Virus record (IMG/VR): IMGVR_UViG_3300010234_000004
Coordinates: 1-64,000 of that record
Reading direction: 5' to 3' (one strand)
Length of the DNA: 64,000 nt
Origin: a virus
Below, piece after piece: positions 36,769 to 64,000 of the stretch (position 1 is its first letter; every line of letters begins with the position of its first letter). The notes beneath the pieces are model-generated. The model saw nothing but the letters and a program-made list of their open reading frames with translations, made no database searches and was not told where the DNA came from. Position numbers and translations under genes: made by a program.

Positions 36769-36775
36769 TTCGGGT

Positions 36776-36783
36776 TATAAGTA
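36776..36783 (+). promoter_or_regulatory. Late promoter TATAAGTA
   Basis: Intergenic, before gene 2. Confidence 0.7.
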
Positions 36784-36801
36784 GAGGGGGAAGGAATCTT
36801 C

Positions 36802-39532: not shown

Positions 39533-39540
39533 GACTCACA

Positions 39541-40416: not shown

Positions 40417-40426
40417 GAGATATGAT

Positions 40427-42487: not shown

Positions 42488-42489
42488 TC

Positions 42490-43770: not shown

Positions 43771-43781
43771 AGGATTAGAAG

Positions 43782-44696: not shown

Positions 44697-44698
44697 TG

Positions 44699-44706
44699 TA
44701 TAAGTA
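44699..44706 (+). promoter_or_regulatory. Late promoter TATAAGTA
   Basis: Intergenic, before gene 25. Confidence 0.7.
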
Positions 44707-44724
44707 GTATTAAGGAGACATCAC

Positions 44725-45174: not shown

Positions 45175-45176
45175 AA

Positions 45177-47019: not shown

Positions 47020-47985
47020 ATGTCGATTCGTACCACCGTTGAGCATAATGCCAGAGAAGTATCATTGCGCTACCCCCGCGTGGCCAGTCTTCTTCCTGAT
47101 TATTTTCCGAAACACTATCCGAATCTGGTAAACTTCCTTGAATCATATTACGAGCAATCTGCCGCTAATGATACGTTAGATCATACCTTCAATCAAAAGC
47201 TGTTTGCGATTCGTGATCTAGACGAGATATCTTTGGACTACATTGATAGCCTATTCTATGAAATCGGAAACGGTGCATCATCTGACTATTTCCAAGACCC
47301 ACGGTTTGTGGGTAAATTGCTTCCGTTACTACTTCGATCAAAGGGTACGGAACTTGGTATACAACTCTTTTTCAGGACGTTTTTCGGATTCAGTCCGGAA
47401 ATACAGTATCCAAAACTTGACATGCTTGAAGTGTTTTCTGGCGATTCTGATGAAACGAATAAGGCTAGAATTGGTGTTGACGATGGTAAGGTTCTACAAA
47501 ATTCGGCCAAATACCAAAAGCTTTCAGTGTTGATCAGATCGGAGGCATCGTTCCTCGACTGGGAAAATCTGTATAGAAAGTTCGTTCACTCGGCTGGTTA
47601 TTTTCTATCCTCAGAAGTAGTAACGGAAGGGGTTGCAAATGCCAATCCGCTTGCTAGTGTTTATCTTAACGATTTGGACTCATCCGAATACGGTGTCTTG
47701 ACGTTCGGTGAATTGGTAGAGCCTGTTGGTGATCAATTATCACAGTCTGAAGTTTACATCATACTGGAGTCTGATAACACTGAATTCCATCTTTCAACAG
47801 TTGATACTCTCGATAAATATAGCACCGTGCCGATTTCGTATATGGATACCCATTATGATGGACCTTATGCGGCGGCTGATCTCAATAGTCCACGTGTCGA
47901 TCAGGATTCTGATGGAACCACCAAGATTATTGAAACCAGTACGACGCTCGAATTGGTCGATGCATCGCTTGTTGATTCGGCATAA
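47020..47985 (+). CDS. Short gp7-like baseplate wedge protein
   Basis: LP.YF...YP..V.FL..YY, KGT...FFR and VH.AG. Confidence 0.7.
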   Translation: MSIRTTVEHNAREVSLRYPRVASLLPDYFPKHYPNLVNFLESYYEQSAANDTLDHTFNQKLFAIRDLDEISLDYIDSLFYEIGNGASSDYFQDPRFVGKLLPLLLRSKGTELGIQLFFRTFFGFSPEIQYPKLDMLEVFSGDSDETNKARIGVDDGKVLQNSAKYQKLSVLIRSEASFLDWENLYRKFVHSAGYFLSSEVVTEGVANANPLASVYLNDLDSSEYGVLTFGELVEPVGDQLSQSEVYIILESDNTEFHLSTVDTLDKYSTVPISYMDTHYDGPYAAADLNSPRVDQDSDGTTKIIETSTTLELVDASLVDSA

Positions 47986-48009
47986 TTATGAAATCCACCC
48001 TCCCGAAGG

Positions 48010-48017
48010 TATAAATA
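48010..48017 (+). promoter_or_regulatory. T4 late promoter TATAAATA
   Basis: Exact consensus, intergenic. Confidence 0.75.
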
Positions 48018-48042
48018 GATATAAGAGATAACGAGGCATTAC

Positions 48043-48825
48043 ATGAGTAGACAAGATATTTTTACCGGCACAACGGCCAATGACGGGACGGGTGAACCGT
48101 TACGTGCTGCCCTTCAGAAGGTTAACCTCAACTTTGTTGAGTTATACCAGAGGCTTGGGATCGATTCTGACAACTTGGCCGCTATCGCCTTTGGTGACAG
48201 CGGGGATATAGTGTTCGAAGGTGGTTCGTTCAACACCACTCTGGAATTCGTGCAACCAACCGCGACCAGAACTGTTACTATTTCAGATGCTTCTGGAACG
48301 CTTGTTCTGGACACTGCCACACAGACACTCACTAATAAAATTCTAAATCTCCCTGACATTCACGATTCCGATAATAATGAGGTTATGAAGTTTGCGGGTG
48401 CCGCTTCAGCAGTCAACGCCATGACGCTCACGAACGCCGTAACAGGAAGTGCGCCGTCTCTTGCAACTACGGGAACCGATGCGAACATCAACTTGGATTT
48501 GAACGCTAAGGGGTCTGGTGCAGTTGTCGTGGAGAAGGCCTCATTCGGACGTATTCAAATCACGGCCAACGGCGCAGTAAGTGTCAACAAAACTCACATT
48601 CAATGTTTTAAGGCTACCGCACTGGCATTGACTATGGGTGACGGCACGGTTAACAGCGAAGTTAAATATTTCACCAATTCTGGAGCGGGAACTGCTACTG
48701 TCACACCCACCAACTTCGCACTTGGAACGAATTTCGCTATACCACAAAATCACGCATGTCAGGTTATGTGGGACTCAGACAACTGGTTTGTTGTCGGTGC
48801 CAGCTCTGGCGTAATAATTACATAA
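48043..48825 (+). CDS. gp9/gp10-like baseplate-fibre connector
   Basis: Q.I..G..ANDGTG..LR.A..K.N.NF.ELY. Confidence 0.75.
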   Translation: MSRQDIFTGTTANDGTGEPLRAALQKVNLNFVELYQRLGIDSDNLAAIAFGDSGDIVFEGGSFNTTLEFVQPTATRTVTISDASGTLVLDTATQTLTNKILNLPDIHDSDNNEVMKFAGAASAVNAMTLTNAVTGSAPSLATTGTDANINLDLNAKGSGAVVVEKASFGRIQITANGAVSVNKTHIQCFKATALALTMGDGTVNSEVKYFTNSGAGTATVTPTNFALGTNFAIPQNHACQVMWDSDNWFVVGASSGVIIT

Positions 48826-48834
48826 GGAAATAAC

Positions 48835-50151
48835 ATGACCGCTATCCTCACTGATAATCTGAAGCGTGAGTTACTAGACCGGCTTCTAGCCTCAACAGAT
48901 TCTGATAAATATTATATCGGTATCGGTCGTTCAGAACCATGGAACGATTCAGATATCGCTACTACTCCTGTCAATTGCCTATCAGACGTGAGAGGGTTCA
49001 GGACTTCTATGCAGGCCGTCAAAATTGCACAGGATGTTACATTTTGCGTACCAAGAACCAATTGGGCATCTGGTACGACTTATGCGGCATATGATGACAC
49101 AGTGTCGGGTCATACAACTCCATCATTTTTCGTATTCACCGATGAGAACAACGTTTACGCGTGTATAGAGCGCGGTAGAACCGCGTTAGGCGCAACGAAG
49201 GCCTCAACCATCAAGCCGACAGGACAGGCCACCTCGGCCTTCCAGACATCCGATGGGTACACTTGGAAATTCTTGTACACCATCACGACGGCGGTATCAA
49301 CTAAATTTCTTTCATCGAATTTTATACCGGTTGAGTGGGTTGATTCGGATGAGGCCGCTGCTAACGTTGGTTCGGCACTCCAAAGAGCTGTTCAGACCGC
49401 TGCTACAGTAGGAGAGATTCTTTCGATTCCCGTCACTGCTGGTGGTTCGGGATACACCTCTGCACCGACTGTTACTATCAAAGGGAACGGGATCGGTGCT
49501 ACGGCCACTGCTACGATTGCTTCTGGCGCAGTAGTAAAAATTGAGATGGCTACTAGAGGGTCTGCATACGGATTTGCTGATGTGGCTATCACAGGCGGCG
49601 GTGGTTCGGGTGCGACGGCACGTGTAGTAATTGGTAACGCTGGTGGTTTTGGTTCCAATCCAGTTGATGATTTGAAGGCAAAGGCTCTAATGTTCAATAT
49701 CAAGCCTGACGGTTTTGAAAATGAAGATTTTATCGTGGGTCAGGACTTCAGACAGATTGGCATCATCCAAAATCCCGAAGACTATGCTGGGACCGCATAT
49801 GTAGGATCAACTGGTAGTACACTCAAAAAGATTGTGCTTTCGTCTCCAGGCGAAGCTGGAACGTTCGCCCTTGATCAGACATTCACGGGCAATACCACTT
49901 CGAATCAGGCATTGGTGGACTATATCGACTCAGACACGATTTTTTATCATCAAAATACGACTACTGGGTTCGGTTCATTTGACAGTGATGCTACTATTAC
50001 TGCGCCGGGCGCGTCGGGCACGATCTCTCAACATATAGATAGTGCAGATGTTGATTTTATGTCGGGTAAGGTTTTGGTTGTCGACAACCGAAGCGCCATT
50101 ACGCGAGATGCGAATCAGACTGAAGATATCAAAGTAATTATCCAGATTTAA
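48835..50151 (+). CDS. 8: Baseplate wedge gp8
   Basis: PR.NW..G..Y..YD, DGY.WKFLYT, DFRQIG and I.R...QTEDIK. Confidence 0.85.
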   Translation: MTAILTDNLKRELLDRLLASTDSDKYYIGIGRSEPWNDSDIATTPVNCLSDVRGFRTSMQAVKIAQDVTFCVPRTNWASGTTYAAYDDTVSGHTTPSFFVFTDENNVYACIERGRTALGATKASTIKPTGQATSAFQTSDGYTWKFLYTITTAVSTKFLSSNFIPVEWVDSDEAAANVGSALQRAVQTAATVGEILSIPVTAGGSGYTSAPTVTIKGNGIGATATATIASGAVVKIEMATRGSAYGFADVAITGGGGSGATARVVIGNAGGFGSNPVDDLKAKALMFNIKPDGFENEDFIVGQDFRQIGIIQNPEDYAGTAYVGSTGSTLKKIVLSSPGEAGTFALDQTFTGNTTSNQALVDYIDSDTIFYHQNTTTGFGSFDSDATITAPGASGTISQHIDSADVDFMSGKVLVVDNRSAITRDANQTEDIKVIIQI

Positions 50152-50161
50152 GGCACTCAAG

Positions 50162-53100
50162 ATGACATCAAGCTACATACAAAATACATTCGAGAACGTC
50201 TATAAGGATGATTATTCAGACAGCGCGGGTTTTCATCGAATCTTGTTTAATGCTGGCCGACCTGTTCAGGGTCGTGAACTTATTCAAGCACAGACAATCA
50301 TCCAAAAAGAGATTAAGCGGTTTGGGGATAACATCTTCAAAGATGGGGGTGCTGTAAACCCCTCCCAAAACATTAAATGTAACACACGTCACCATTTCGT
50401 TAAGCTGTTGCCGTCAGATGATCCGACCACTGCAACACTTCTTACCACGTTCACTGGGGCAACATCTGGTGTGAGTGGTAAGCTGTTTGAATATAGAGAG
50501 ACTGAGCATGGTGATCCGCCAACGATCTTCGTACAATATACCGAAGGTGGTGGGGTTCTTGGAGTTAATAGTTTTACTGCTGGTGAAACAATCTCGAACG
50601 GCGCTGTCACATTTACAGTTCAGACAACCAATACTGAAGCTAATCCAGCGACTGGACGCTGTACCAAAATTTCAGTTGGTGATGGTGACTTCTACACACA
50701 AGGACATTTCACATATGGTGAAGCGCAGTCCCTGATTATCGACAAGTATTCACCATTCGGAACCGCCATTGTCGGTTTCAAGGTATCTGAATCTATCGTC
50801 TCTGCGACTGACGATATATCCCTCTATGATAACCAAGGCGATTTACCCAACCTGACCGCTCCGGGCGCTGATCGATATAAGATTAACTTAACACTGGTTA
50901 ACGATTCTGATGTTGCAGCCGAAGAAACATTCGTGTACATCGCCAACATTCAAAATGGTGAGGTGGTTCAGACCAACAATGGTCGTGATGACTATAACCG
51001 AATTCTTGACCTTATGGCGGAACGCACGCATGAAGAATCTGGTAACTATGCGGTTCGACCTTTCTTTATTACTTTTGAAGCTGACAGTGCAGACACACAC
51101 CTTCTGGTTAACACTCCTGCCAGCGTTGGGTATGTTGATGGATACCGCATTGAAACGCTGAATGAAAAGTTGCGGATTCCCAAACCTACATCCACAGAAC
51201 TGGTAAACAACGACGGTGTTTCTGCCGAATATGGAAATTACCTGTTGGTCAACACCGTTGTCGGTCTTCCCGACCTGACCTCATATGAGAAGATCAATCT
51301 GGTCGATAGTGATGTTTATGCATCCGGTAATGTTATCGGAACCAGCCGCGTGCGGAGTATCGTGGACGAAGGTTCTGGGACATTCAAATTCTACATGTTC
51401 GACACGAAAATGCATACTGGCAAAAACTTCCGTAGTGTGAAGGCTGTCGGTACTGGTGCCAGCAACAACGCTAAAATCACACTTGAAAGTAATGTCGCGG
51501 TTCTAAAAGATCGTAAAAATAGTAATCTACTTTTCTCCCTACCAAAAGAACGCCCGTCCTCCATTTCGGCGGCTGACTACACATATTCAGTTGTTCGACA
51601 TGCATCTAAGACGGTTTCTACGAACACGATCACATTGACGAAGGGTACAGGCGAAAGCTTCACGTCAACCGATGAGTGGATTTTCACTGACCAAGGCGCA
51701 AGTGGTGTACAAATCACCGCAACAAACATTAACACAACGACAGGCTTGGTTACGTTCACGTCGGCCACTGGACCAGTTGACGCGGTTTACAATATTCAAA
51801 AAGGTGGGGTTGGTGCACCTACTCCCTACAAAACGAAAACGCTAAACGAATCCACAGTCACTGCATCCGTAACAACAGATTCCGATGGAACATATGTTGA
51901 CTTAGGTAAGGTTGATATTTTCTCGGTGTCACGCGTGCGTGCAATCGACTCAGACGGTGCTGACCTTAGTTCGCGGTTCTATGTTGACAACGGACAAAGA
52001 GACAACTATTACGATCATGGTCGCATGGTGGTTGCCCCTGGGACAGCTACTCCAGCGGGTAACGTATTTGTTCGATTTAAGCATTTCGATCATTCTGGTG
52101 TTGGTGACTTCTTCTGCATCAATTCCTATGATACGGTTTCTGATATTACATACGCAACGGTCCCAAGCCATCGCCAAACGAACGGTGAGACTGTTCCGCT
52201 GCGTGATGTTCTGGACTTCCGTCCTACTATTGACGACACTGGAACAGAATTTACAGGCACGGGTGGTCTGGTATCTGAACTCCCCCAAAATACTGATCTG
52301 GTGACCATTGATACCACGTATTACCTGCCACGTAAAGATCGGCTTCTTCTGAACCGCAGAGCCAAACTGTCATATGTTACTGGCGAGCCAGACTTTGATC
52401 CTAAGCCACCAAGCACAAATGACGCAATGCTCTTGTATGAAGTTGACATGCGACCCAACACGCTTAACGAACAAGATTTGGGTGTAGAATATATCGACAA
52501 TCGCCGCTGGACAATGCGTGATATCAGCATTCTACACAAGAAAATTGAGGCGGTCGAAGAGACTGCGGTATTGAGCCTGTTGGATATTCAGGCGTCTACG
52601 CTTGAAGTTCTTGATAATGACGGCCTATCGCGTACTAAAGCCGGATTCCTGACTGACGATTTCAGAGACCATCGTGCAGCACGCGTGGATGATTTGGAAT
52701 ATCGTGCAGCGATTGATCCTACGCAAGGCATCATGAGGCCAGCATTTCGTGAAAAGAATGTCGGACTGCTGTTTGATTCTGCTGACGGTGCAACGACTTC
52801 TACGATTTTGAAATCCGATGCGGTTATGCTGGACTACACGGAAGAGTTGTTCATTAGTCAACCGCTTTGTTCAGGCACTGAAAACGTTAACCCGTATACA
52901 ATCATGTATTTTGAAGGCACATTGATTTTGTCACCGGCTTCCGACGAATCCCGTGACGTGGTAAACTTTAGCTTGCGCGGGGATCGCCGTAGTGAAATCG
53001 GTATTGAAACGTTCCTCCAGCGTGTGCTTGGTCAGCAAGATACCAATTCGGTATTCGAAAACCTTACACGTAACCAGCGGTCGCAGTTTATTCGTAACAG

Positions 53101-55435
53101 AATTTCAGTAGAAGAAGCGACCAATTTCACGTCTTCCGGCTCATTGGAAGAGGCTATCAACACGCTTCCCCCGCAACAGAACCAGATTTTGGCTCAGGTC
53201 TTCGATACAATTTCACCAACATGGCGTGAATACACGTGGGGTTGGGCTGGTATTGATAGAAGCGCCAATGGCTCGTCACAGGGTGTTGGACCCGGCGTCA
53301 CAGACGGTTCAACGTTCGGACGTTTCGCCACTAGATTGTTTACCCCGCGTATTCGCGCACGTGAGATTCGTATGCGTGCGGTCGGGTTGCTTCCAAATGC
53401 ACGTCATTGGCCTTTCTTTGACGACATTGATGTTAGCAATTATTGTGTCCAGAACCAGCGTATCGGTGTTGGCGACTTCCCGTCCATTAACTGGGAGTTT
53501 TCAAGACGTGAGAGCAACTGGCAGTGGTCTGGCTTTAACGGTCGCCTTTTCCAGCGTGCACGTAGTAACAACTGGCACCCGTTTTGGGGAACCACAGCAC
53601 CGACAGATGAGCAAAAGTCTCTCATATCAAGTAGTAACGGAACTATCAATGCTTCGTTCTTCATGCCAAACAATGAGGAGCTTTGGTTCTGGTCTGGCGT
53701 AAAGGTTATGAAGTTGGTGGATGTTTCCGATGGCAACATCGACAACGCAGTATCTCATTGCAATGGCATCTACTCAGCCGAAGGATCAATTGATGTTCGG
53801 TGGAGAATCATTCCGCCGCCACCACCACCTCCTCCTCCACCACCACCTTCAGGCGGCGGTTCGGGTGTAGCATCTGGCAACCGCCCCGATCCAACAGGTT
53901 ACGGTGATCCTATTGCTCAGTCGTTTATGGTCGAAAACTCCGCTGGCGTGTTCATAACAAAAGTATCTGGATACTTCAAAGCTAAGGATGATACAATTCC
54001 CGTGGCCGCATTCCTTGTGCCAATGATGAATGGTTATCCCATGGGACTTTCGCCCTATGCGGGAGCGTATAAGGTTCTTGCACCATCTGAGGTTAATATC
54101 TCCGATGATGCGACTGCTGTCACGCATTTTGAATTTGATCGTCCGGTGTATCTCCCACCGGGAGAACATGCATTGATTTTCAAATCTAATTCATTTGATT
54201 ACAGGGTCTATATTTCTCGCGTTGGAGAGTTTGTCTTGGGTACGACCCTGAAGAAGATTACTAAACAGCCTACCTTTGGGTCTCTGTTCAAGTCGCAGAA
54301 CTCATCTACATGGTCTGCGTCTCAGTGGGAAGACCTGAAAATGGATATCTATCGGGCCGAATTTGCGACGGACGGTGTTGCTATCTTCAAAAATGATGAT
54401 TTTACATCTAAGCTTCTTGTACCAAATCCATTCCTATTCGATAGTGGGGATGCAACGGTTCGGGTTATCCATCCAAACCATAACTTGATGGTCAACGATG
54501 TGCAATATTTCCACGGTGTGGATAGTGCACAATCGTATCCTATGAGCGTCAATTCTATTGTGGGTAATCGCACGATTACGGCAGTTGATGGAACGGGTTA
54601 TACCTTTGAGGCTGATTCGGCTGCGACTAGCGATGCCAGAACCGGTGGTGAAGGTGTGTGGACTTGTGACAACCTCATGATGGACTTGGTAGTGCCTTCC
54701 ATTGACGTAGTTAACCAAATCGGTACTACTACTGCACTGAAAGGTAAATTTACATCAGGTAAGTCATTAGCTGGTCTCGAAACACCATATGGTCTGGAAT
54801 CCACATTCAGTCATAATCTTGTACCATATGAGGAATACCAGTTTAACGCTCCACGCATGGTGGTCGGTGAAGAACTGGAAGGTGAGGTCGGATATCCTAC
54901 CAAATCGTCGTATGTTCAAGCCACATTACACACCGACAACACGTGGGTGTCTCCGGTGATTCACGCAGACAGATGTTCGTTGACTGGTATTCATAACCTG
55001 ATCGACAATCAAGATTCTGCTGCAACGGTTGGCTGGAATGTGCCGTTGAGTTACATCGATGAAACTGATCCATTCGGCGGCACACAGTTGGCCAAGTACG
55101 TCACTAAGCCAGTCACCTTAGAGGAAGACGCAGTAGGCTTGAAGATCATCTACGCGGCCAACAGACCGTCTGTAGCGGGCATCAAGGTGTACTACAAGAC
55201 GATTGACGATGACGGTGATATCAACACTGAGCCATGGACGTTGATTGATCTGGAAGCTCCTATACGAAGCGACGAAGACCCTACGAAATTCAGGGAGCAT
55301 CGTCACCTTGTTGGGGGGATTGCTGGATTGGATACACCATTCAATACGTTCCAAGTCAAAATTGTTATGACCTCAACCAACAGTTCTAAGGTTCCGGTAT
55401 TCAGGGATTTCAGAGCAATTGCATTGACCATCTAA
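50162..55435 (+). CDS. Large virion structural protein (VrlC/DUF4815-like)
   Basis: Y.DD..., LF..GR..Q.REL.Q.Q, APGADR, RT.EESG.Y, DP.AQSF and FKSQN..TW. Confidence 0.85.
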   Translation: MTSSYIQNTFENVYKDDYSDSAGFHRILFNAGRPVQGRELIQAQTIIQKEIKRFGDNIFKDGGAVNPSQNIKCNTRHHFVKLLPSDDPTTATLLTTFTGATSGVSGKLFEYRETEHGDPPTIFVQYTEGGGVLGVNSFTAGETISNGAVTFTVQTTNTEANPATGRCTKISVGDGDFYTQGHFTYGEAQSLIIDKYSPFGTAIVGFKVSESIVSATDDISLYDNQGDLPNLTAPGADRYKINLTLVNDSDVAAEETFVYIANIQNGEVVQTNNGRDDYNRILDLMAERTHEESGNYAVRPFFITFEADSADTHLLVNTPASVGYVDGYRIETLNEKLRIPKPTSTELVNNDGVSAEYGNYLLVNTVVGLPDLTSYEKINLVDSDVYASGNVIGTSRVRSIVDEGSGTFKFYMFDTKMHTGKNFRSVKAVGTGASNNAKITLESNVAVLKDRKNSNLLFSLPKERPSSISAADYTYSVVRHASKTVSTNTITLTKGTGESFTSTDEWIFTDQGASGVQITATNINTTTGLVTFTSATGPVDAVYNIQKGGVGAPTPYKTKTLNESTVTASVTTDSDGTYVDLGKVDIFSVSRVRAIDSDGADLSSRFYVDNGQRDNYYDHGRMVVAPGTATPAGNVFVRFKHFDHSGVGDFFCINSYDTVSDITYATVPSHRQTNGETVPLRDVLDFRPTIDDTGTEFTGTGGLVSELPQNTDLVTIDTTYYLPRKDRLLLNRRAKLSYVTGEPDFDPKPPSTNDAMLLYEVDMRPNTLNEQDLGVEYIDNRRWTMRDISILHKKIEAVEETAVLSLLDIQASTLEVLDNDGLSRTKAGFLTDDFRDHRAARVDDLEYRAAIDPTQGIMRPAFREKNVGLLFDSADGATTSTILKSDAVMLDYTEELFISQPLCSGTENVNPYTIMYFEGTLILSPASDESRDVVNFSLRGDRRSEIGIETFLQRVLGQQDTNSVFENLTRNQRSQFIRNRISVEEATNFTSSGSLEEAINTLPPQQNQILAQVFDTISPTWREYTWGWAGIDRSANGSSQGVGPGVTDGSTFGRFATRLFTPRIRAREIRMRAVGLLPNARHWPFFDDIDVSNYCVQNQRIGVGDFPSINWEFSRRESNWQWSGFNGRLFQRARSNNWHPFWGTTAPTDEQKSLISSSNGTINASFFMPNNEELWFWSGVKVMKLVDVSDGNIDNAVSHCNGIYSAEGSIDVRWRIIPPPPPPPPPPPPSGGGSGVASGNRPDPTGYGDPIAQSFMVENSAGVFITKVSGYFKAKDDTIPVAAFLVPMMNGYPMGLSPYAGAYKVLAPSEVNISDDATAVTHFEFDRPVYLPPGEHALIFKSNSFDYRVYISRVGEFVLGTTLKKITKQPTFGSLFKSQNSSTWSASQWEDLKMDIYRAEFATDGVAIFKNDDFTSKLLVPNPFLFDSGDATVRVIHPNHNLMVNDVQYFHGVDSAQSYPMSVNSIVGNRTITAVDGTGYTFEADSAATSDARTGGEGVWTCDNLMMDLVVPSIDVVNQIGTTTALKGKFTSGKSLAGLETPYGLESTFSHNLVPYEEYQFNAPRMVVGEELEGEVGYPTKSSYVQATLHTDNTWVSPVIHADRCSLTGIHNLIDNQDSAATVGWNVPLSYIDETDPFGGTQLAKYVTKPVTLEEDAVGLKIIYAANRPSVAGIKVYYKTIDDDGDINTEPWTLIDLEAPIRSDEDPTKFREHRHLVGGIAGLDTPFNTFQVKIVMTSTNSSKVPVFRDFRAIALTI

Positions 55436-55641
55436 TGGCCACTATGAAGATAAAAGAGCAGCCACATCTTGTAAAGGATGTGGCCTCTGGTGCAGTTATA
55501 AATACTAACAAGGACGAAATCCTTTCGGCCAAAAAGCGTAAGGCTGCACGCATGGCGGAAAAGGAACGTATAAATAACTTAGAGCATGAAGTGGAAGAGA
55601 TGCGTGAAATCATCAAAATGCTTATCAGGGAAACCAAATGA
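55435..55641 (+). CDS. Small conserved coiled-coil protein
   Basis: L.KD..SGAVIN motif; follows the VrlC-like gene. Confidence 0.75.
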   Translation: MATMKIKEQPHLVKDVASGAVINTNKDEILSAKKRKAARMAEKERINNLEHEVEEMREIIKMLIRETK

Positions 55642-56117
55642 CACAGATTACCAGTAATGATACATTCGCTGAGTGGATCACACAATATAACAGCCTAGAT
55701 TCTGATTTTAGAACGGGCGGATTGACTCGTACATCGATTAGTGTCGCGGACACTGGTGGATTGGGCGGATTGTCTTATAACTCCGTGACCGGCATCATCA
55801 CTTATACTGGAGCGTCAGATTCTGATGTGAGAAATCTATTCTCGGTCGGCTCTGGATTAACGTATGATAGTGCTACCGGACAGTTCGACGCGACGGTCGT
55901 GAATAACGCGTCGGAAACTGTCTTGGGTATTGCATCATTCGATTCTGACGCTTTCACTGTCACCGCTGGTCATGTTTCATTGGACGCTTTGACAATCACT
56001 ACTTCTCAGATTGCGACCGATGCAGTAACTGCCGCTAAGCTCTCTAATTTGACAACACTGGTCGTGTATAATTCGGCTGGGTCTGCGGTGAAAACACTAT
56101 ACGGAGCGGGAAGCTAA
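55638..56117 (+). CDS. Fibre/neck-like structural protein
   Basis: DTF.EW...N, YNS.TG repeats and GIASF. Confidence 0.65.
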   Translation: MTQITSNDTFAEWITQYNSLDSDFRTGGLTRTSISVADTGGLGGLSYNSVTGIITYTGASDSDVRNLFSVGSGLTYDSATGQFDATVVNNASETVLGIASFDSDAFTVTAGHVSLDALTITTSQIATDAVTAAKLSNLTTLVVYNSAGSAVKTLYGAGS

Positions 56118-56123
56118 TATATT

Positions 56124-57704
56124 ATGACTGCAAGAACCCCCTTAAAACTGGACTCTGATAACTCGCTGATCGAAATGACGGCTGGGGAAATTGGTAGGAT
56201 TGTCAGGCACTGTAAATACCTCTATGGCCTAAATCCATCAGTGGGTGTTAAGTGGATTGATTCTTCGGGTACGCTTGGAACCCTGACGGATACCCGCGTT
56301 ATTGCTGGTGTAATGTCCAATGATAACGCTTCCTTTCCCAATGAGACGACGACGGCTGAACCTGGGTCGACCTCTAATGATTATGCACGAATGAGTGATA
56401 GTGCTGTCTCAGCAACGGTGGCCACTCCAGATACAAATAATCTGGCGTTCCCATGTTACCAAATTGCGGGTAACATTTACGCTATGACGGATTCAGATTT
56501 GTATGATACCTTTATCCACCCTGCTATAACAGAATTGGTGGACGGTACAGATCAACCCGGCACATTTAGAATTCACACGGCCAGTACTTTGGCCGGTCAC
56601 ACAGTTATTGGCGGTTCGAAATCAGTTGTATCGGTTCCAACGTTCGTATCCAGCCAGACATCGTCAACCACATCAATGACCTATCCAAGCGGGATTCAGG
56701 CCAATGATATAATTGTATTTGCACAGTGTCAGGATACCGTTGGCACTTATGCCGTTCCGACGGATACGGTTACGGGAACCTATACACAATCTGAAGGTTA
56801 TAATTCAGATAACCCATCATTTCAAATATGCTATAAAGTGGCCAACGGTGATGAATCTGGTACTACTCTCTCATGGTCTGAGTCGTCTTCGGCAACAATA
56901 TGTCAGGTTTGGAGAGGGTGTGATTACGCTGGCACTCCACTAGAAATCGGAACCAGAAAAGGTTCATCCGGATCAACATACAACTGGAATTATGTCACCA
57001 CAACGACAGATAATAACACCATCCTCCAATTCATGTTTCTGGATGATGATAACACGACTATCAGCTTTGGGGATGCAAGTTCAACCAATGTGATCACGCT
57101 GGGAAGAACCGCTGCATCTATTGGTAGTGCTGCAAATTTTCAGAGATATGCAGGCACACACCAACCGCCTAATTCCACTGGTACAGCCGACGCATACCAG
57201 ACACAAGTAGTCGTTTTGCGTGGTGAGACTGTCACCGAAACCACGAATCCGGTATTTCTTGATTCGCGTGCCGATACTACAATGTACTCGGCGGGTGGTA
57301 TTGGTGAACAGCTTGATCAGCCTGTGACGGTAACTGAATTTTACCTCATGCAGACGGATGCTGACTCCGACGAAACTTTTCCCTTGCCTGTTTATATCAG
57401 GACTGATCTGGACTCGGCGGCTCAAAGCTGGGTTGGTATTCAGGAGTTCGATTCGGCCAGTATCAGCGACATTTTCAGTAACAGCATTCGCCATGTTGCA
57501 ACGTCCGTATCACCATCGATTATTTCATATAACATAGACGGTGCAGGGAATAATAGAGGATCAGGCATCACTGATACCATCTTAACAGGCGGCTCTGGCA
57601 CCCGCGTCACCCGACAAGTCGACGACGATTATCGTGCCCAAGAACTTCCGGATGGAACGCCATCGACTGCAACCACATCATATCTACGTATCACGAAGGC
57701 ATAA
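56124..57704 (+). CDS. Virion structural protein
   Basis: S/T/G-rich; RTPL N-terminus and YRAQE.P.G C-terminus. Confidence 0.7.
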   Translation: MTARTPLKLDSDNSLIEMTAGEIGRIVRHCKYLYGLNPSVGVKWIDSSGTLGTLTDTRVIAGVMSNDNASFPNETTTAEPGSTSNDYARMSDSAVSATVATPDTNNLAFPCYQIAGNIYAMTDSDLYDTFIHPAITELVDGTDQPGTFRIHTASTLAGHTVIGGSKSVVSVPTFVSSQTSSTTSMTYPSGIQANDIIVFAQCQDTVGTYAVPTDTVTGTYTQSEGYNSDNPSFQICYKVANGDESGTTLSWSESSSATICQVWRGCDYAGTPLEIGTRKGSSGSTYNWNYVTTTTDNNTILQFMFLDDDNTTISFGDASSTNVITLGRTAASIGSAANFQRYAGTHQPPNSTGTADAYQTQVVVLRGETVTETTNPVFLDSRADTTMYSAGGIGEQLDQPVTVTEFYLMQTDADSDETFPLPVYIRTDLDSAAQSWVGIQEFDSASISDIFSNSIRHVATSVSPSIISYNIDGAGNNRGSGITDTILTGGSGTRVTRQVDDDYRAQELPDGTPSTATTSYLRITKA

Positions 57705-57707
57705 CAC

Positions 57708-58262
57708 ATGAAGAATTTAGATTTTGTAACGGCACGCTTCACCGACAACGATAGAAAAACCATCCTATCGACTTGGACCGATGGAACAAGGGTCGTTGAA
57801 ACTTATTGTGAGGCTGCTGACAGGGACGCGCAGTACAGAGACCTTATCGCCAACCATTGCACACTAGACCAGATTCATGAAAACACGTGGACGTGGATTG
57901 GCCGTAGTCGCGAAGAGATAGATGATTATATCATTTCAATCGGTAAGAAGCGGGGAATGATCACCTCAGTTGGTGACGGTCTGACTGGTGACGTTTGGCA
58001 TCTAATCACCAAGGCCTTGTTCACCGAAGACGTGGATAAGGAACAATTGTTCCTATTGAAGCTGGAGCTTTTTGAACTCGATTTCATCAAGGCGTGTAAA
58101 GATCGTGGCCTGAAATCCAAGTTGCGGAAAGCCAAAACGGTATTAGAATCTATCAGTCTGGCAACAGAAATTCGGAATACCAAGGAAGAGGAGCCTGCTC
58201 CGAAGAAGAAGGCACCCGCGAAGAAGCGGAAGCCTCGCGCATCAAATCGTGTCTCTGATTAA
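57708..58262 (+). CDS. Hypothetical protein
   Basis: LF.LKL..FE motif; basic tail. Confidence 0.7.
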   Translation: MKNLDFVTARFTDNDRKTILSTWTDGTRVVETYCEAADRDAQYRDLIANHCTLDQIHENTWTWIGRSREEIDDYIISIGKKRGMITSVGDGLTGDVWHLITKALFTEDVDKEQLFLLKLELFELDFIKACKDRGLKSKLRKAKTVLESISLATEIRNTKEEEPAPKKKAPAKKRKPRASNRVSD

Positions 58263-58764
58263 ATAGATAAACGTCAAATTCATCTGAAGGCTCTGTGACT
58301 GTTTGGAAAGTGCAGTAACGATCTACCCTGCCATATCGATTGTATCCTATATTTTCGAATAGGAACTGATCCATACCAAGGCGGTATTTGAACAGATAAT
58401 ACTCAGGGTCTTCCATAAACTTTTCATAAATGTATGACTGATCCCCCTTCCAAGATATGATATCTGAGCAGATCGGGGTATGGAAGGCGTTTCTCCACCA
58501 AGCATAACAGGTCGTCAAATCGCTTCTCAAGAAGTGATTACAGTCCCCCTTGATGATCACGTCAAGGTCAAAATAGATGTTCTGGCCGTCCCTGTACTTG
58601 TCAAACATCAACAGCTTGTTGAACACGCCATCATATAAGTCCTCATCCATTACTACGAATTCGTCATAGTTCAGACCCGAATATGTGTCCACCATATGGC
58701 GAAGATTGTCCTCCCACCATTTATCGAATTTCGTACCTGTACGCACGCAAATCACCCGAAGCAT
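58153..58764 (-). CDS. Glycosyltransferase-like protein
   Basis: CV..G.KF, KL..F, YFDLDV.I (DxD) and DQ. Confidence 0.7.
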   Translation of the reverse strand: MLRVICVRTGTKFDKWWEDNLRHMVDTYSGLNYDEFVVMDEDLYDGVFNKLLMFDKYRDGQNIYFDLDVIIKGDCNHFLRSDLTTCYAWWRNAFHTPICSDIISWKGDQSYIYEKFMEDPEYYLFKYRLGMDQFLFENIGYNRYGRVDRYCTFQTVTEPSDEFDVYLFNQRHDLMREASASSRVPSSSEQAPLPWYSEFLLPD

Positions 58765-59570
58765 TGATCAAATTCCTTATTTACCATATGTGCCAGATAG
58801 CACGATTGTTTGTTCAGGGTTCCGCTCTCGACAATAAAATTCCATGCCATGCTCAACTCATTGTGCGGAACGTTATTACTTTCAATTAAAAACGTCATGA
58901 AACATTCGTTATTCGGTGTGAAGTGTTTGGATATGCGTCCATCGAAGAGTGTATCATCGATAGCCTCATGAACCAGATCGGTCATGAATTGCATGTTCTC
59001 CTTGAATTTCAACTTCTTTACTACTTCACGACCAGCAGCGATAACCCCCGTGTTGAAGACGTAGTCATGTCCCACGACATCATGTTCAATCATCATCATG
59101 CTTTTTTTGGCGGCAATCTTACAATACACGTTCATGGGGTCGAAATCTATTGTGTCCATGTAATTTGGGACACGCCATTTGACATGCATATTATCTCGTT
59201 CAGCCGGTCGGCCATTTCCCCCCACGTTCCCATAGTATTTGTATAGAGGGAGCATATTCATTTCATTCAAATTCACCATATCGAATATGCATGGTGCATC
59301 ATTCATTGGAATCACGTCGAAGTCGAGATACAACAGTTCATCAAACTCATTGGCCAGTTCTTCAAGAAGGCATACCTTATCCATCTGAATGTCGGGGTAT
59401 TGGCTCGATTCGGTAGAGAGCAACCGATACTCAGCACCCATATTTTTTGCATATTGCGCCTGACGTTCCTCGATTTGTGTAGCATACTTCTTCATCTGAT
59501 CGATCTTGAATGATGGTTGATGGCTTGGAGCCATGTCATCATTCCATATGCTGTAGACGATTCTTTTCAT
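58752..59570 (-). CDS. Glycosyltransferase-like protein
   Basis: YA...GAEY, LYLDFDVIP, NTGV, NE, WN and H..NK. Confidence 0.7.
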   Translation of the reverse strand: MKRIVYSIWNDDMAPSHQPSFKIDQMKKYATQIEERQAQYAKNMGAEYRLLSTESSQYPDIQMDKVCLLEELANEFDELLYLDFDVIPMNDAPCIFDMVNLNEMNMLPLYKYYGNVGGNGRPAERDNMHVKWRVPNYMDTIDFDPMNVYCKIAAKKSMMMIEHDVVGHDYVFNTGVIAAGREVVKKLKFKENMQFMTDLVHEAIDDTLFDGRISKHFTPNNECFMTFLIESNNVPHNELSMAWNFIVESGTLNKQSCYLAHMVNKEFDQCFG

Positions 59571-60435
59571 ACCATTTCCTAACGAATTCGAATTCCTTGG
59601 TTATAGCGTGCACCAAGTGTGTGTTTGGTGGAATGGTCTTATGCCGATCCATGACATAATGCCAACGCCCATCCAATTGCTGCTCGATCACTTCATTCAC
59701 CACCGACTTGTAACCCCACAGGGTTTCGTTATCCCATCCGAATGAGTCAATCTGCCATTGCATAAACATATCATCTGGATTAGTGACCAGTTCGGACATG
59801 AAAGCCATATCTTCATCGAACGTGTCGAAATACGCTAGTGTATCGAGATGCTCCTTTGTTGCCCCTATGATCCCTGTATTGTAGACGGGTTGATCGGGTT
59901 CGAAGTGAGTGTCGGTCAGCATTGCATAAGTGTTCCAGTATTTGGCCTCTGGACTTCTGTTACTAGTTATACGGACTGCTCGCTTTTTCATGTGATAGGT
60001 TGATCGTACAATGTCGCTTGCAGGCAGCTTCTGGATAGCAATGCCTTCATTCAGATTCCACGCCTCAAAGAAGTTTTCGGATGTGACCGGAATCACGTCC
60101 AAATCCATGTATAAGACTTCATCAAACTCATGGGCCAATTCGTACAGCAAATGGATTTTATAGAAATTGATGATCAGATACGTTGTCAGGAACGGGTAAC
60201 GCGTTTTCATATCATTATAATATGCGCCCCACACAACACCCCCCTGATATAATCGGTATTCGGCCTCGCACTCGCGTGCATACTCGCGTTGCATATCAGC
60301 CAGCCAATCCACCGAAGCCTTGAAGTTATCCTTGGCCTTGAAGTTTTTGTTAATACTTTCCCCTTGGAATGGCAGTTGATCATCCAACTGGGACTTGGGT
60401 ATGTCGATGTATATGGAGTAGATAACGCGTGTCAT
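59539..60435 (-). CDS. Glycosyltransferase-like protein (paralog of 58752-59570)
   Basis: YA....AEY, LYMDLDVIP, NTGI, NET, WH and H..TK; the start may instead be 60450. Confidence 0.7.
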   Translation of the reverse strand: MTRVIYSIYIDIPKSQLDDQLPFQGESINKNFKAKDNFKASVDWLADMQREYARECEAEYRLYQGGVVWGAYYNDMKTRYPFLTTYLIINFYKIHLLYELAHEFDEVLYMDLDVIPVTSENFFEAWNLNEGIAIQKLPASDIVRSTYHMKKRAVRITSNRSPEAKYWNTYAMLTDTHFEPDQPVYNTGIIGATKEHLDTLAYFDTFDEDMAFMSELVTNPDDMFMQWQIDSFGWDNETLWGYKSVVNEVIEQQLDGRWHYVMDRHKTIPPNTHLVHAITKEFEFVRKWYEKNRLQHME

Positions 60436-60453
60436 GAAGAATCCTTTCATGAC

Positions 60454-60485
60454 TACTTAGCTTGACGCCTTCGAATGTATAAATA
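60454..60485. promoter_or_regulatory. Divergent late promoters: TATAAATA (+, 60478-85) and candidate CTAAGTA (-, 60454-60)
   Basis: The plus-strand site is exact; the minus-strand site has only the TAAGTA core. Confidence 0.6.
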
Positions 60486-60514
60486 GTAGTAAGGGTTCAA
60501 ATAAGGAGATTTCA

Positions 60515-60877
60515 GTGGCTGTATATGAAGATTTGAGCATTGATCAGGGATCGGATGTGGCCATTGAGTTGCACTTGACGTTGGACAATGGGTCGAAGAA
60601 AGATTTAACCGGATTTAGCGCTGCCGCGAAGATGAAGAAGTCATACACGTCATCTGATTCTGACGCGGTGTCATTTAATGTGACATTCCCTAATCCAAGA
60701 ACCGACGGAGTATTGGTTCTTAGCCTTACAAACACAGAATCAGATGCTTTAAAACGCGGCAAGTATCTATATGACGTTGAAATTTCATATGTCGACTCCG
60801 ATGCAAACACGATTGTAGAACGGGTTCTTGAGGGTCGCGCAACAGTTAATCAGAGCATTACGAGGCTTCAGTCATGA
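60515..60877 (+). CDS. Ig-like/BppU-like virion protein
   Basis: IDQG, DLTG, LSLT...., G.Y.YDVEI and RVLEG. Confidence 0.75.
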   Translation: MAVYEDLSIDQGSDVAIELHLTLDNGSKKDLTGFSAAAKMKKSYTSSDSDAVSFNVTFPNPRTDGVLVLSLTNTESDALKRGKYLYDVEISYVDSDANTIVERVLEGRATVNQSITRLQS

Positions 60878-61146
60878 CAAATGTGATTAATGTACGTACA
60901 AGAGCATCATCTAACGTCATGGTTGGACGTGATCCGTCCGCAACAGTGGTTAAAGAAATTCGCGTTGGGGTTCCTATCCGCCGCGTTAATACAACTTCGG
61001 GAAATAATTTGGAGGGTGCGGCCAACGTTAGACCTGTAGACCCCGTTCCAGATGGCGCTTTGTTAATTTTTGATGCGGCTGAGCAGGAATGGGTAGTAAC
61101 TAAAAACGTAGAAACTGGTCAAGATATTAACGGAGGTAGTTACTAA
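60874..61146 (+). CDS. Small fibre-associated protein
   Basis: DGA.L.FD....W and C-terminal INGGSY. Confidence 0.65.
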   Translation: MTNVINVRTRASSNVMVGRDPSATVVKEIRVGVPIRRVNTTSGNNLEGAANVRPVDPVPDGALLIFDAAEQEWVVTKNVETGQDINGGSY

Positions 61147-62696
61147 TGGCTGCAATTATTCGAATTAAAAGGTCGACTGGCACCTCTTCACCTGGGTCAC
61201 TTAAATCGGGTGAATTGGCATATTCGGGCGGTGTTGGTGTCGATTCAAACGGCGGGTCTAGACTGTTTTATGGTCTTGGCGACGATGGTAATGGTAATGC
61301 CACCAGTATTGTTCGTGTCGGCGGGGAATATTATGCCGACAAAATGGATCACATCCCAGGTACACTAACCGCTTCAGCAGCAATAATTGCTGACGTTAAT
61401 AAGAAAATTGACCAATTACTCGTTGATAACATAGACATCAACGGGAATACAATCGCTACAACAAACACTAACGGCAATCTGGTTCTAGACCCCAATGGTT
61501 CTGGCTCAGTCGATGTCAACACTTCGTTGATCGTCAATGTCTCTGACCCAGCGTCTGCCCAAGACGCGGCCACTAAGAATTATGTCGACACGCAAGTCAC
61601 CGCAAACAACAATCTTTCGATCACAGGTGATACTGGTTCTGATGTTGTCGATATTCTCGATTCTTCGTTAGATTTCGATGGTGGGACTGGCCTGACGGCG
61701 ACAGTCACAGATAATCGAGTTTCATATGCTCTGGATAATACGACAGTCTCGGCCAATACATACGGCTCAACGACAGCCATTCCGGTCATTACAGTCGATG
61801 CACAGGGTCGCCTAACGACAGTCACAACAGCGTCTATCACGACGATTCTTTCTACGTCAGCAGAAAGTGGAACTGGTTCGATCTCACTCGCAGATTCCTC
61901 GTTGGATATTGCTGCTGGTGAGGGTATCGACACAGTCGCATCCGGAAACGTAATTACGATTTCTGGTGAAGATGCTACTACCGCAAACAAGGGTATCGCA
62001 TCATTTGCTACAGCGAACTTCACAGTCGCATCCGGTGCGGTCTCGGCCAAGACAATCACTCTTGGTTCTTCGACTCTATCTTTGGGTGGCACAGAAACTG
62101 ACGTCGCTGGATTGACATCGCTGGTTGTTGATCAGTTGACTCTCAACGGAAACGTTTTAAGTTCGACCGATGGAACAATCGCTCTTGATCCGAATAGTGC
62201 AGACTCTGATGTCGGCACAGTCATTGTACGAGGTAATCTCCAAGTCGAAGGTGAACAGACGATTGTCAACAGTTCGACCGTGTCAGTAAATGACTTGAAC
62301 ATCACTGTTGCTGATAGTGCGGCGAATGCCGCAGCGGCTGACGGAGCTGGCTTGACAGTCGGTGGATCGAGTTATTCTGGTACACAAGCTACATTACTAT
62401 TCGACGGTGCTAGTGACAAATGGGGATTCAACAAAACACTGAATCTACCCGCTGGCCTTACTTCGCTAGAATTCGGCGGTGTTGATGCGACCGAAGTGAT
62501 TGAAGATCACCTCGCGACTTTCTTCTTAGAGGGCGAAGGACTAAACATCACGTATGACGACGGAGCGCACACGATGACATTTGCTGCCGAAACGGCGACA
62601 TACACCAATTTGGGTGTTGCGAGTTTCGACTCTGATCAGTTCACTTTGTCCGCAGGATTCGTGACAGTAACCGAATTAGACGGTGGAGTCTACTAA
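61146..62696 (+). CDS. Tail fibre-like protein
   Basis: I.IKRS...L..GELAY, DAATKNYVD, GNLQV.G..T.VNS and LDGG.Y. Confidence 0.8.
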   Translation: MAAIIRIKRSTGTSSPGSLKSGELAYSGGVGVDSNGGSRLFYGLGDDGNGNATSIVRVGGEYYADKMDHIPGTLTASAAIIADVNKKIDQLLVDNIDINGNTIATTNTNGNLVLDPNGSGSVDVNTSLIVNVSDPASAQDAATKNYVDTQVTANNNLSITGDTGSDVVDILDSSLDFDGGTGLTATVTDNRVSYALDNTTVSANTYGSTTAIPVITVDAQGRLTTVTTASITTILSTSAESGTGSISLADSSLDIAAGEGIDTVASGNVITISGEDATTANKGIASFATANFTVASGAVSAKTITLGSSTLSLGGTETDVAGLTSLVVDQLTLNGNVLSSTDGTIALDPNSADSDVGTVIVRGNLQVEGEQTIVNSSTVSVNDLNITVADSAANAAAADGAGLTVGGSSYSGTQATLLFDGASDKWGFNKTLNLPAGLTSLEFGGVDATEVIEDHLATFFLEGEGLNITYDDGAHTMTFAAETATYTNLGVASFDSDQFTLSAGFVTVTELDGGVY

Positions 62697-62738
62697 ACAA
62701 TATATGGGATTTTTATCCCTTGAATAAGGACCATTTTT

Positions 62739-64000
62739 ATGGCTAAACCTGTAGTACCCCTGATACAAAAGCGTTCGTCTGTCCCAGCTAAGGTTCCCTT
62801 GGTGGGCGACCTTGTATATGGTCAGCTTGCGATTAACTACGCCGACGGCCTGATCTACTATAAAGACGCTTCCAACAACATCAAGAAGTTTCTCGATTCC
62901 GATAATATCCTGTCATCAGTGGGTGGGGTGTATCCCAATGCTACGAGAGCGGGGGGGCGTGATTATCTCGATATTGACTCTGCGACTCAGGCGATCACTC
63001 TGAATGCAATCGACTTAGGAACCGATATAACTGGTAACCTTCCGGTCGCTAACTTGAATGGTGGTGCGAGTGCGTCTGCCAGCACATATTGGAGAGGCGA
63101 TGGAACATGGGCTGCAATCGCGGGTGGGATTGATGATTCAGCAGTAACAACGGCAAAGCTCGATCACTTCGCAGTCACGACTCCAAAAATCGCACAAGGT
63201 GCGGTGACTACATTAAAACTTGCGGACAATTCTGTGACTCTTGGTAAGATCGCAGACTCAGCAGTATCAACGGTAAAGCTTGATCACTTCGCAGTCACGA
63301 CTCCAAAAATCGCACAAGGTGCAGTGACTACATTAAAACTTACAGACAATTCTGTGACTCTCGCCAAGATCGCAGACTCAGATTTTAGTGAATCTCTAGT
63401 CACGGACGGTTCTAATCCATACACGCTCGTAAAACGTAATGCTAATGGATATATCGGTTCGCGGTACGTTTACTCATTCTATAACAGTATGAACCACTCT
63501 GCCGCTCAACGCGATGCCGACACAGTGTTCTATTCATCTACAGACAACTTCGTCAGGAAAAATACTGAAACGGGTTTCATCAATAGTCTGAATGTCGGAG
63601 GTTCTCTCGATAGCGCAATTTCAAACAATGCTGCGGTTGTATCAAACACCGCTAAGGTTACAAATGCAACACATACGGGTGACGTGACGGGCGATTCTGC
63701 TCTTACTATTGCGGCAAATGCGGTCACGGCCACAAAACTCAATGTGGATTCTGACGGTACTGTTGGACACTATGTGAAATCTAACGGCGATGGATCGTTC
63801 AGTTGGGGTTCACCCGGAGGTGGTGGAGCATCTGTCACAGTAGATTCGAGTGCACCGACATTCGGCATTGGTTCTCTTTGGTGGCACACGGTTCTTGGTG
63901 CGCTGTTCGTCGGATTTCAAGATTCGGACGGGACGCAAGCTTTCGTTGAAGCATCGCCAGCACCGGCTCAGGAATTGGCGGTTAGAATGAACATATATAA
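62739..64000 (+). CDS. Tail fibre protein (runs off the window end; not in the ORF track)
   Basis: Manual translation [15 protein letters not shown]...[10 protein letters not shown]..., open to 64000; AVT..K(I/L)A repeats; AAGGA SD. Confidence 0.85.
63135..63374 (+). repeat. 120-bp tandem duplication inside the fibre gene (2 x 40 aa)
   Basis: 63135-63254 and 63255-63374 are nearly identical. Confidence 0.9.

Follow-up and report, generated by a model that had tools for sequence, protein, structure and literature searches.

Why should the outward-facing tail proteins of a virus be crowded with copies of one short motif? The question is raised by IMG/VR record IMGVR_UViG_3300010234_000004, a 102.6-kb linear contig, 63% complete by CheckV, from an uncultured marine T4-like myovirus. 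The stretch analysed here, which we call the window, is its first 64 kb (positions 1 to 64,000). The baseplate wedge subunit gp8 of this genome is 37% identical to gp8 of Phage C48C1 and 28-29% identical to gp8 of the Pelagibacter phages Mosig and HTVC008M and of cyanomyophages. Nine plus-strand proteins encoded between 47020 and 64000 contain 28 Asp-Ser-Asp (DSD) and 18 Asp-Ser-Ala (DSA) tripeptides, exactly the numbers counted in an earlier inspection of the letters alone. That sequence-only reading proposed that the phage glycosylates the Ser of DSD and DSA (together DS[DA]) on exposed baseplate and fibre proteins, and pointed to glycosyltransferase (GT) genes among the fibre genes. We confirm the enrichment of the motif on distal tail proteins and find it stronger than first stated, at six- to nine-fold over chance in this phage and in about a hundred sampled relatives. 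A Ser O-glycosylation sequon, encoded by the phage and read by a trans-acting phage enzyme, has in our judgement about an even chance of being the explanation.

A motif concentrated on distal tail proteins

The distal set was widened to 12 proteins (47020 to genome position 65584; 5,039 amino acids) and compared with composition-shuffled proteins. DS[DA] occurs 53 times in this set against 6.0 +/- 2.5 expected, and the maximum in 1000 shuffles was 15. DSD is the top outlier among all 8000 tripeptides (31 against 2.8 expected, z 16.9), and DSA is found 22 times where 3.2 are expected (z 10.3). The remaining proteome, 27,476 amino acids, has 19 DS[DA] against an expectation of 16.2. Within the distal set, D or A follows 53 of the 65 DS dipeptides, the middle residue of D-x-D is Ser in 31 cases and Thr in none, and x-S-D opens with Asp 31 times and with Glu twice.

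Six Ser codons and both Asp codons are in use, a variation already noticed in the sequence-only reading. The motif is therefore no DNA repeat, and a cause at the level of DNA is ruled out. Nor does it come from a duplicated domain, since the sequence contexts are mostly unrelated; internal repeats were rejected as a cause in this genome, where repeated segments hold only a few of the sites and the contexts are for the most part unique.

Along the genome the onset of the motif is abrupt. The plus-strand genes at 32617-47018, which encode the tube cap, the hub, gp5-like, gp25-like and gp6-like proteins and other inner-baseplate proteins, hold one DSD and no DSA in about 4,700 amino acids, as had been claimed. 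Directly past the gp6-like gene begins a block of outer wedge, VrlC-like and fibre genes (47020-65584), and its first member, a 321-residue baseplate wedge protein replacing gp7 (47020..47985, plus strand like all the structural genes that follow; PF23786 Baseplate_wedge and a PHROG wedge family), already has 2 DSD and 1 DSA. It is followed by a 260-residue protein with a gp9/gp10-like N-terminal domain (48043..48825; PF07880 T4_gp9_10_N, E 5e-10; 3 DSD), by gp8 itself (48835..50151; 438 residues; phrog_438, E 1e-82; 5 DSD and 1 DSA) and by a giant VrlC-like structural protein of 1757 residues (50162..55435; phrog_358/877), in which 4 DSD and 6 DSA account for most of 11 DS. A small fibre-associated protein (55638..56117; 159 residues; 3 DSD and 1 DSA) precedes a 526-residue fibre protein with no family match (56124..57704; 3 DSD and 3 DSA). 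Beyond three minus-strand genes, discussed below, lie a 120-residue fibre-module protein (60515..60877; phrog_1084/3304) whose 2 DSD are conserved in every relative, a fibre or structural protein of 516 residues (61146..62696; phrog_15769; 2 DSD and 1 DSA) and a 434-residue tail fibre protein (62739..64000, ending at genome position 64043; phrog_892 tail fiber; 4 DSD and 5 DSA among 10 DS). The protein-by-protein counts given earlier for the gp8-like and gp9-like proteins, the two small proteins and the last fibre agree with these.

Past the fibres come the neck genes gp13/14/15 and the terminase, sheath, tube, portal and head genes. Here, outside the window, the motif is also present on the gp14-like (2), gp15-like (2) and sheath (4) proteins; the tube, portal, major head protein and terminase of this genome are not marked by it.

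Distribution and turnover across related phages

We classed 163 distinct related loci by their ratio of observed to expected motif counts, as motif-bearing (at least 3) or motif-free (1.5 or less). The trait is bimodal, with 95 motif-bearing loci, 33 motif-free loci and 4 in between. In a tree rooted on a cyanophage, the motif-free lineages form a basal grade and the motif-bearing ones a single derived clade. By this phylogeny the motif arose once, in a large marine clade. Families encoded up to 10 kb away on either side were also considered as separators of the two classes and rejected, the top ones being structural proteins and mere clade markers. The gp9/10-like family at 48043 is found at 81 of the 95 motif-bearing loci and at none of the 33 motif-free ones.

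Related genomes, which we designate by number, range in completeness from G006 (87%), G007 (84%) and the motif-free G008 (a 131-kb contig, 81%) to G009 (61%) and G004 (23%). Genome totals of DS[DA] are 73-122 in near-complete motif-bearing relatives, as against 17 in G008. The fibres of these near-complete relatives are packed with sites, the maximum being 35 in 1961 residues; giant fibres whose N-termini are homologous to the protein at 55638 have 29-35 motifs. Homologues of the 60515 protein in G001, G002, G003 and G004 (47-53% identity) keep 2 motifs apiece.

The distribution among proteins is stable and the individual sites are not. The protein-by-protein partition is the same in IMG/VR relatives whose gp8 is 46-57% identical, and nearly all of 120 metagenomic gp8 homologues have 3-7 sites. 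An alignment of 121 gp8 homologues contains about 15 site columns, of which 3-7 are used per phage, and sites have been gained, lost, slid by one residue or switched between DSD and DSA. Some gp8 lineages are almost DSD-only and others almost DSA-only (for example, 0 DSD and 6 DSA), and the choice between the two forms is in part shared across a genome (Spearman 0.40, p 7e-4).

In Mosig, HTVC008M, P-HM1, G008 and the 33 motif-free loci, the orthologues of gp8 and VrlC have no sites (0-1 in the VrlC-like homologues). Judged by these orthologues, the motif is a trait of the clade and the folds do not need it. A nested lineage that includes C48C1 has purged its gp8 and VrlC and kept the motif on fibres, the gp9/10-like protein and the sheath; the purged sites must therefore be dispensable for folding. 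Single fibre proteins of this lineage retain all or most of their DS dipeptides as DS[DA], for instance 6 of 6 in L181:16620-17873, and in C48C1 the fibres that retain the motif are at L001:18306-23012 and 29673-31046 and at L249:1-3884. These site-rich fibres suggest either exchange of fibre genes or selective retention.

Residue specificity and position on the virion

To describe the code we pooled the outer proteins of the 95 motif-bearing loci (270,822 amino acids); since these counts include inherited sites, they describe the code and not independent events. DS[DA] is observed 1551 times against 261 expected. The observed-to-expected ratio is 6.5 for DSD and 5.5 for DSA, falls to 2.5 for DSS, 1.9 for DSN and 1.4 for DSG, and is 0.1-0.6 where DS is followed by a bulky or charged residue (DSV 0.4, DSI 0.6, DSL 0.4). 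Tripeptides with Glu for Asp or Thr for Ser show no excess (ESD 0.8, DTD 0.5, DTA 0.7). At the +2 position Gly is favoured (2.5-fold) and Pro, Lys and Arg are scarce (0.1, 0.2 and 0.3), and the residues immediately preceding the Asp tend to be aromatic or aliphatic. For relatives that lack the motif, the ratios are near 1.

The sequence-only reading likened the motif to the O-glycosylation sequon of Bacteroidota, which Fletcher and colleagues are said to have described in Cell in 2009 as D-(S/T)-(A/I/L/V/M/T). Both have three residues with Asp first and the acceptor in the middle, and DSA fits either. The comparison fails on specificity, with Thr not accepted in the phage (DT[DA] at 0.5-0.7 of expectation) and a hydrophobic +1 residue depleted (DS[V/I/L] at 0.4-0.6). 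The Bacteroidota system accepts Thr, prefers an aliphatic +1 residue and acts in the periplasm via an oligosaccharyltransferase, whereas virion proteins are cytoplasmic and DSD is the commonest form of the phage motif.

The motif also follows the topology of the virion. In five genomes, DS[DA] is in large excess on the outer baseplate and fibres (230 observed, 31.3 expected) and on the sheath, gp14 and gp15 (39 against 5.7), and occurs 6 times against 9.5 expected in head, tube, portal and terminase proteins and 12 times against 15.6 in non-structural proteins. The inner baseplate and hub have a single copy where 12.0 are expected (P 8e-5). Across the 95 motif-bearing loci the inner baseplate is again depleted (23 against 83.9, P 3e-15), whereas the 33 motif-free loci show no avoidance there (24 against 24.9).

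Mapping onto predicted structure bears out the earlier expectation that sites would lie in loops. In an AlphaFold2 model of gp8 (predicted local distance difference test score, pLDDT, 88.5), all six sites (residues 22, 38, 170, 365, 383 and 402) fall in a loop or turn that immediately follows a strand or helix. In the sheath proteins of five phages every site is within residues 62-286, the variable outer part of the protein, which we take to correspond to the protruding outer domains of T4 gp18.

One further protein lies in a head module. In G007 a 1052-residue protein (contig positions 64289-67447, locus L223), encoded with the major head protein on one side and a prohead gene on the other, has 25 of its 30 DS dipeptides in the form DS[DA]; it may be a tagged head fibre or decoration protein.

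Glycosyltransferase genes of the fibre block

The phage has many glycosyltransferase genes, three of which lie on the minus strand inside the fibre block (58153-60450). The sequence-only reading was right to see DxD glycosyltransferase-like genes here: all three are GT-A-like, with the classic DxD following a hydrophobic strand. One of them passes the Pfam cut-off for GT8 (24.3 bits): the 303-residue GT8a (59539..60450; PF01501, 25.4 bits). Its 272-residue GT8-like neighbour (58752..59570) falls below it (PF01501, E 4e-3, 17.1 bits), and the third gene, which we call fam6 (58153..58764; 203 residues), has no Pfam match and weakly resembles the glycosyltransferases of phrog_1962 (E 6e-4), which a paralogue at genome positions 88200-88931 matches at E 1e-7. 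Searches of the GT sequences against PDB sequences returned nothing significant, with weak matches of the GT8-like genes to LgtC.

The suggestion that these genes write the motif does not survive comparison with relatives. The GT8-like pair does not track DS[DA]: it is missing from the motif-bearing G006, G007 and C48C1, and its sole homologue among 50,697 phage records is in the motif-free Mosig, which shows no other tripeptide outlier of comparable strength. GT8a, absent also from G008, turns up in the weak-motif lineage L033, and we rejected it as a universal writer. The fam6 family is present in this genome, G007, G009, G010, G001 and G002, and is not found in G006 or G008.

Candidate enzymes elsewhere in the genome

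We compared the gene content of five motif-bearing genomes with that of G008. Only seven families occur in at least four of the five and are absent from G008: a small head open reading frame, a fibre, a carbamoyltransferase, paralogues of GT25 (2-4 per motif-bearing genome), a second GT8-like family (GT8b), fam6 and a family that we call fam2. Four or five of the seven are glyco-enzymes (GT25, GT8b, fam6, the carbamoyltransferase and fam2). The carbamoyltransferase (4078..5430, plus strand) is of the sugar-tailoring NodU/CmcH type (PF16861/PF02543, E 1e-39 to 1e-42) and is present in this genome, G006, G009, G010 and C48C1 and also in the motif-free Mosig.

GT8b (20990..21766, minus strand; 258 residues) scores 27.3 bits against PF01501, where the cut-off is 24.3, and has a paralogue at 16590-17480. 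Strong homologues exist in G006 (broken), G010 and G014; none was found in G008, and there is no match in the 50,697 phage records. In-frame TGA and TAA stops break the G006 homologue (contig positions 71096-71871) into three pieces, and it is either a pseudogene or an assembly error. The catalytic DxD of GT8b in this genome, at residue 86, itself reads D-S-D (ICILDSDVF) and is among the few non-structural DSD.

The remaining candidate, fam2, is a 204-residue protein encoded outside the window (genome positions 95613-96227) that shares a cassette with GT25 in this genome, G006, G007, G010 and G014; neither gene is found in G008 or G011. Taken together, fam2, GT25 and GT8b occur in this genome, G006, G007 (partly), G010, G014 and C48C1, mostly fragment contigs that share a trait of single origin, and were not found in the motif-free G008, Mosig, HTVC008M and P-HM1. 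Among the 50,697 phage records fam2 has one match, C48C1, itself motif-bearing.

What kind of protein is fam2? Its model has a pLDDT of 90, and the top Foldseek matches are the sialyltransferases Cst-II and ST8SiaIII. In an all-against-all structural alignment the best match is the central, sialyltransferase-like catalytic domain of Maf, a flagellin O-glycosyltransferase (5mu5_A; Z 11.4, root-mean-square deviation 3.5 A over 166 of 204 residues, chain range 272-508), followed by SteA, Cst-I and an MptE-type kinase at Z 9.4-9.6, with Cst-I at 9.4. Sequence searches are less telling. No protein of the genome matches PF01973 (MAF_flag10) at E <= 1, a fam2 profile found nothing among PDB sequences, and 51 distant relatives of fam2 fall into no Pfam family, one of them reaching PF01973 at E 0.008. 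The protein and its relatives are single domains of about 200 residues without the flanking N- and C-terminal domains of Maf, and a GNGPS...NSGH...WGxDS signature characterises the wider family of 241 representatives. The neighbourhoods of 46 distant fam2-like genes show no DS[DA] enrichment, these neighbourhoods being mostly without structural genes. We infer that the best candidate for the priming enzyme is the Maf-like fam2, not the three fibre-block genes.

Comparison with known systems

The nearest functional precedent for modification of a virion by its own enzymes appears to be in mycobacteriophages, whose glycosyltransferases reportedly decorate the phages' own structural proteins (as Freeman and colleagues are said to have found, Cell Host Microbe, 2023). 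The sites there lie at the C-termini of capsid and tail-tube proteins, in extensions rich in Ser/Thr, and follow no defined tripeptide, and hosts, GT families and virion parts all differ from those considered here.

For the acceptor, the nearest precedent is SdgB, a soluble bacterial transferase of staphylococcal Ser-Asp repeat adhesins that O-GlcNAcylates the minimal peptide Asp-Ser-Asp, after which a second enzyme extends the glycan (PMC8561734). The systems share a Ser flanked by Asp as O-glycan acceptor. They differ in that SdgB and SdgA, which are of the GT-B type and contain a DUF1975 insert, act on a long tandem (SD)n substrate, whereas the phage has isolated tripeptides in loops of folded proteins and favours DSA as well. 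GT-B enzymes (PF00534) have no match at E <= 0.1 in the 102.6-kb contig, itself 63% complete.

Maf enzymes O-glycosylate exposed Ser and Thr of flagellin in the cytoplasm before assembly; nearby hydrophobic residues matter, no sequon is known, and one Maf can use CMP-Kdo (PMC11339370). The likeness lies in the fold, with fam2 best matching the Maf catalytic core (5mu5, from Magnetospirillum), and in the GNGPS-type motif of the wider fam2 family. Unlike Maf, which has three domains and accepts Ser or Thr, fam2 is single-domain and the phage motif excludes Thr.

Finally, pelagimyophages and cyanomyophages have a host recognition cluster for which modification of the host O-chain has been proposed (Zaragoza-Solas et al. 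2020; PMC7029224). The variable island between VrlC and gp14 resembles it in mixing fibre genes, GT8-type glycosyltransferases and radical-SAM cassettes; the paper mentions no motif on structural proteins. Our literature search returned nothing relevant on a phage DS sequon or on glycosylated tail proteins. Phage self-glycosylation, for which the mycobacteriophages offer the functional precedent, would here use a defined code.

Interpretation of the motif

Exact residue requirements, independence of fold, an on/off distribution among relatives, and enrichment outside with avoidance inside together argue for recognition by a trans-acting molecule, at a cost where interfaces are buried. The same four features point to a bulky covalent modification that would be made before assembly. 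The proposal of sequon-directed glycosylation thus stands in part: Asp and not Glu, Ser and not Thr, a small +1 residue, loops, exterior proteins only and a clade-wide on/off pattern all agree with it, as does the DSD acceptor of SdgB (PMC8561734), and the choice of fibre-block genes as writers does not.

We infer three separate things here, namely that Ser is modified, that the adduct is a sugar and which enzyme primes it. The code would be D-S-(D/A), more weakly D-S-(S/N), with an aliphatic or aromatic residue before and no Pro, Lys or Arg after. A soluble phage-encoded enzyme would read it in the infected cell and modify the Ser covalently, most plausibly by attaching the first sugar of an O-linked glycan, which further GT-A enzymes of the phage (GT25, GT8-like) may extend. 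Selection would have spread the code over loops of the outward-facing tail proteins (gp14/gp15, the outer sheath domains, the outer baseplate, the VrlC-like protein and the fibres) and purged it from proteins of the inner baseplate, whose assembly a bulky adduct would block. The complete scheme, in which a clade-wide cytoplasmic O-glycosylation uses a (hydrophobic)-D-S-(D/A) code, a miniature Maf-like primer and GT25/GT8 extension to coat the outer tail and fibres while inner proteins avoid the code, we advance tentatively, as something short of an even prospect.

Several findings weigh against glycosylation by these enzymes. At the sensitivity used, no GT family is universal in motif-bearing genomes: GT8b has no clear homologue in G007 and a broken one in G006, none of the cassette is in the sequenced part of G009 (61% complete) or G004 (23% complete), and GT8a occurs in the motif-free Mosig and in weak-motif L033. 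The fold of fam2 is common to pyrophosphokinases and SteA, and the protein has no Pfam match. Genes distantly like fam2 are present in four phages, among them one complete genome that is not T4-like, and none of the four has the motif or another tripeptide outlier. Given the single origin of the motif, the co-occurrence of genes and motif amounts to about one evolutionary event. No CMP-sugar or other nucleotide-sugar pathway was identified in the 63%-complete genome. The glycosyltransferases of this group of phages have been assigned to change of the host O-antigen (PMC7029224). This genome also has a TET-associated glycosyltransferase domain (L019:6583-7785, that is, genome positions 90583-91785, minus strand; PF20691, E 9e-31), which suggests glycosylated hypermodified cytosine in the phage DNA.

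Alternatively, the trans-acting reader may add something other than a sugar, or add nothing. Options include phosphorylation, a phospho-sugar or phosphoglycerol, acylation, and hydroxylation of Asp by 2-oxoglutarate (2OG) or radical-SAM enzymes; the motif may also be where a decoration or assembly protein docks to coat the tail exterior. All of the sequon-like properties fit any reader, and the lack of a universal GT family fits this one. In G004 the slot of the fibre-block genes (L026:10076-19038) holds three radical-SAM genes, one B12-binding radical-SAM gene and two 2OG-Fe(II) oxygenases, and no GT, and the present genome encodes several radical-SAM/SPASM proteins along with a small P-loop kinase. 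Counter to this, such enzyme families are not on the list of those found in motif-bearing genomes and absent from G008, which GT families dominate, and pelagiphages and cyanophages without the motif commonly have 2OG and radical-SAM genes too. For the docking variant no candidate decoration protein was found. We consider a non-sugar reader rather unlikely.

A second alternative dispenses with a reader and sees in the motif an unmodified structural device of exposed loops, either a tight Asx/ST turn (often D-S-D-G) or a cation-binding or hydration site suited to sea water. Asp and Ser are good formers of turns and N-caps, and the placement of sites at the ends of strands and helices, the Gly at +2 and the hydrophobic residue before Asp are all as such a device would have them. 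The exact specificity, with no substitution by Thr, Glu or Asn, is unexpected for a turn or charge patch, and lineages that use DSA almost exclusively drop the second carboxylate. The same folds exist without the motif in other marine phages, sites slide and turn over, the contexts in this genome are not repeated blocks, and a depletion of inner proteins confined to motif-bearing phages is hard to explain unless the motif has a carrying cost. We regard this explanation as distinctly unlikely.

We judge improbable the view that the glycosyltransferases are unrelated to the motif, serving host-envelope remodelling against superinfection or glycosylation of phage DNA while the motif has a separate cause: host O-chain modification has been proposed for the GT-rich cluster of pelagimyophages (PMC7029224), the TET-associated gene is present and GT8a does not track the motif, but the TET-associated gene is found in this genome alone among those compared, GT25, GT8b and fam2 are common to motif-bearing genomes, lacking in G008 and missing or nearly so from the 50,697 phage records, and the motif would be left unexplained.

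Other features of the genome

The top tripeptide outliers of the non-structural proteome are GDQ, IRS, QVW, RSG and NQV. They fit arrays of mini-genes with xxQV repeats, at positions 1-1303 of the window and at about 89.3 kb of the genome, which adjoin radical-SAM/SPASM genes. Genes of this kind are at 2990-4081 and 10392-11144, and mini-genes and enzymes may together form a system like those for ribosomally synthesized and post-translationally modified peptides. A full-length peptide transporter of the SbmA/BacA family (19967-20944, minus strand; PF05992, E 2e-115) adjoins ClpP (19347-19970) and a metallophosphoesterase. An 884-residue protein (12243-14897, minus strand), found in this genome alone among those compared, ends in an ADP-ribosyltransferase exoenzyme domain (PF03496, E 3e-17) and in this recalls T4 Alt.

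Implications

Since sequence alone suffices to recognise the motif, it could serve to map exposed and buried surfaces of uncharacterised tail proteins. If Ser is modified, no bacteriophage before this one would have had an acceptor code defined for modification of its virion, and DS[DA] would also be a rare short sequon for a soluble O-transferase of prokaryotic type, useful for glyco-engineering. Should the glycosylation reading be true, the glycosyltransferases of pelagiphage-like myoviruses would be reassigned from remodelling of the host envelope to self-decoration. A large share of marine myovirus particles would then have a glycan coat on their host-recognition apparatus, with a bearing on adsorption, host range, decay and grazing.

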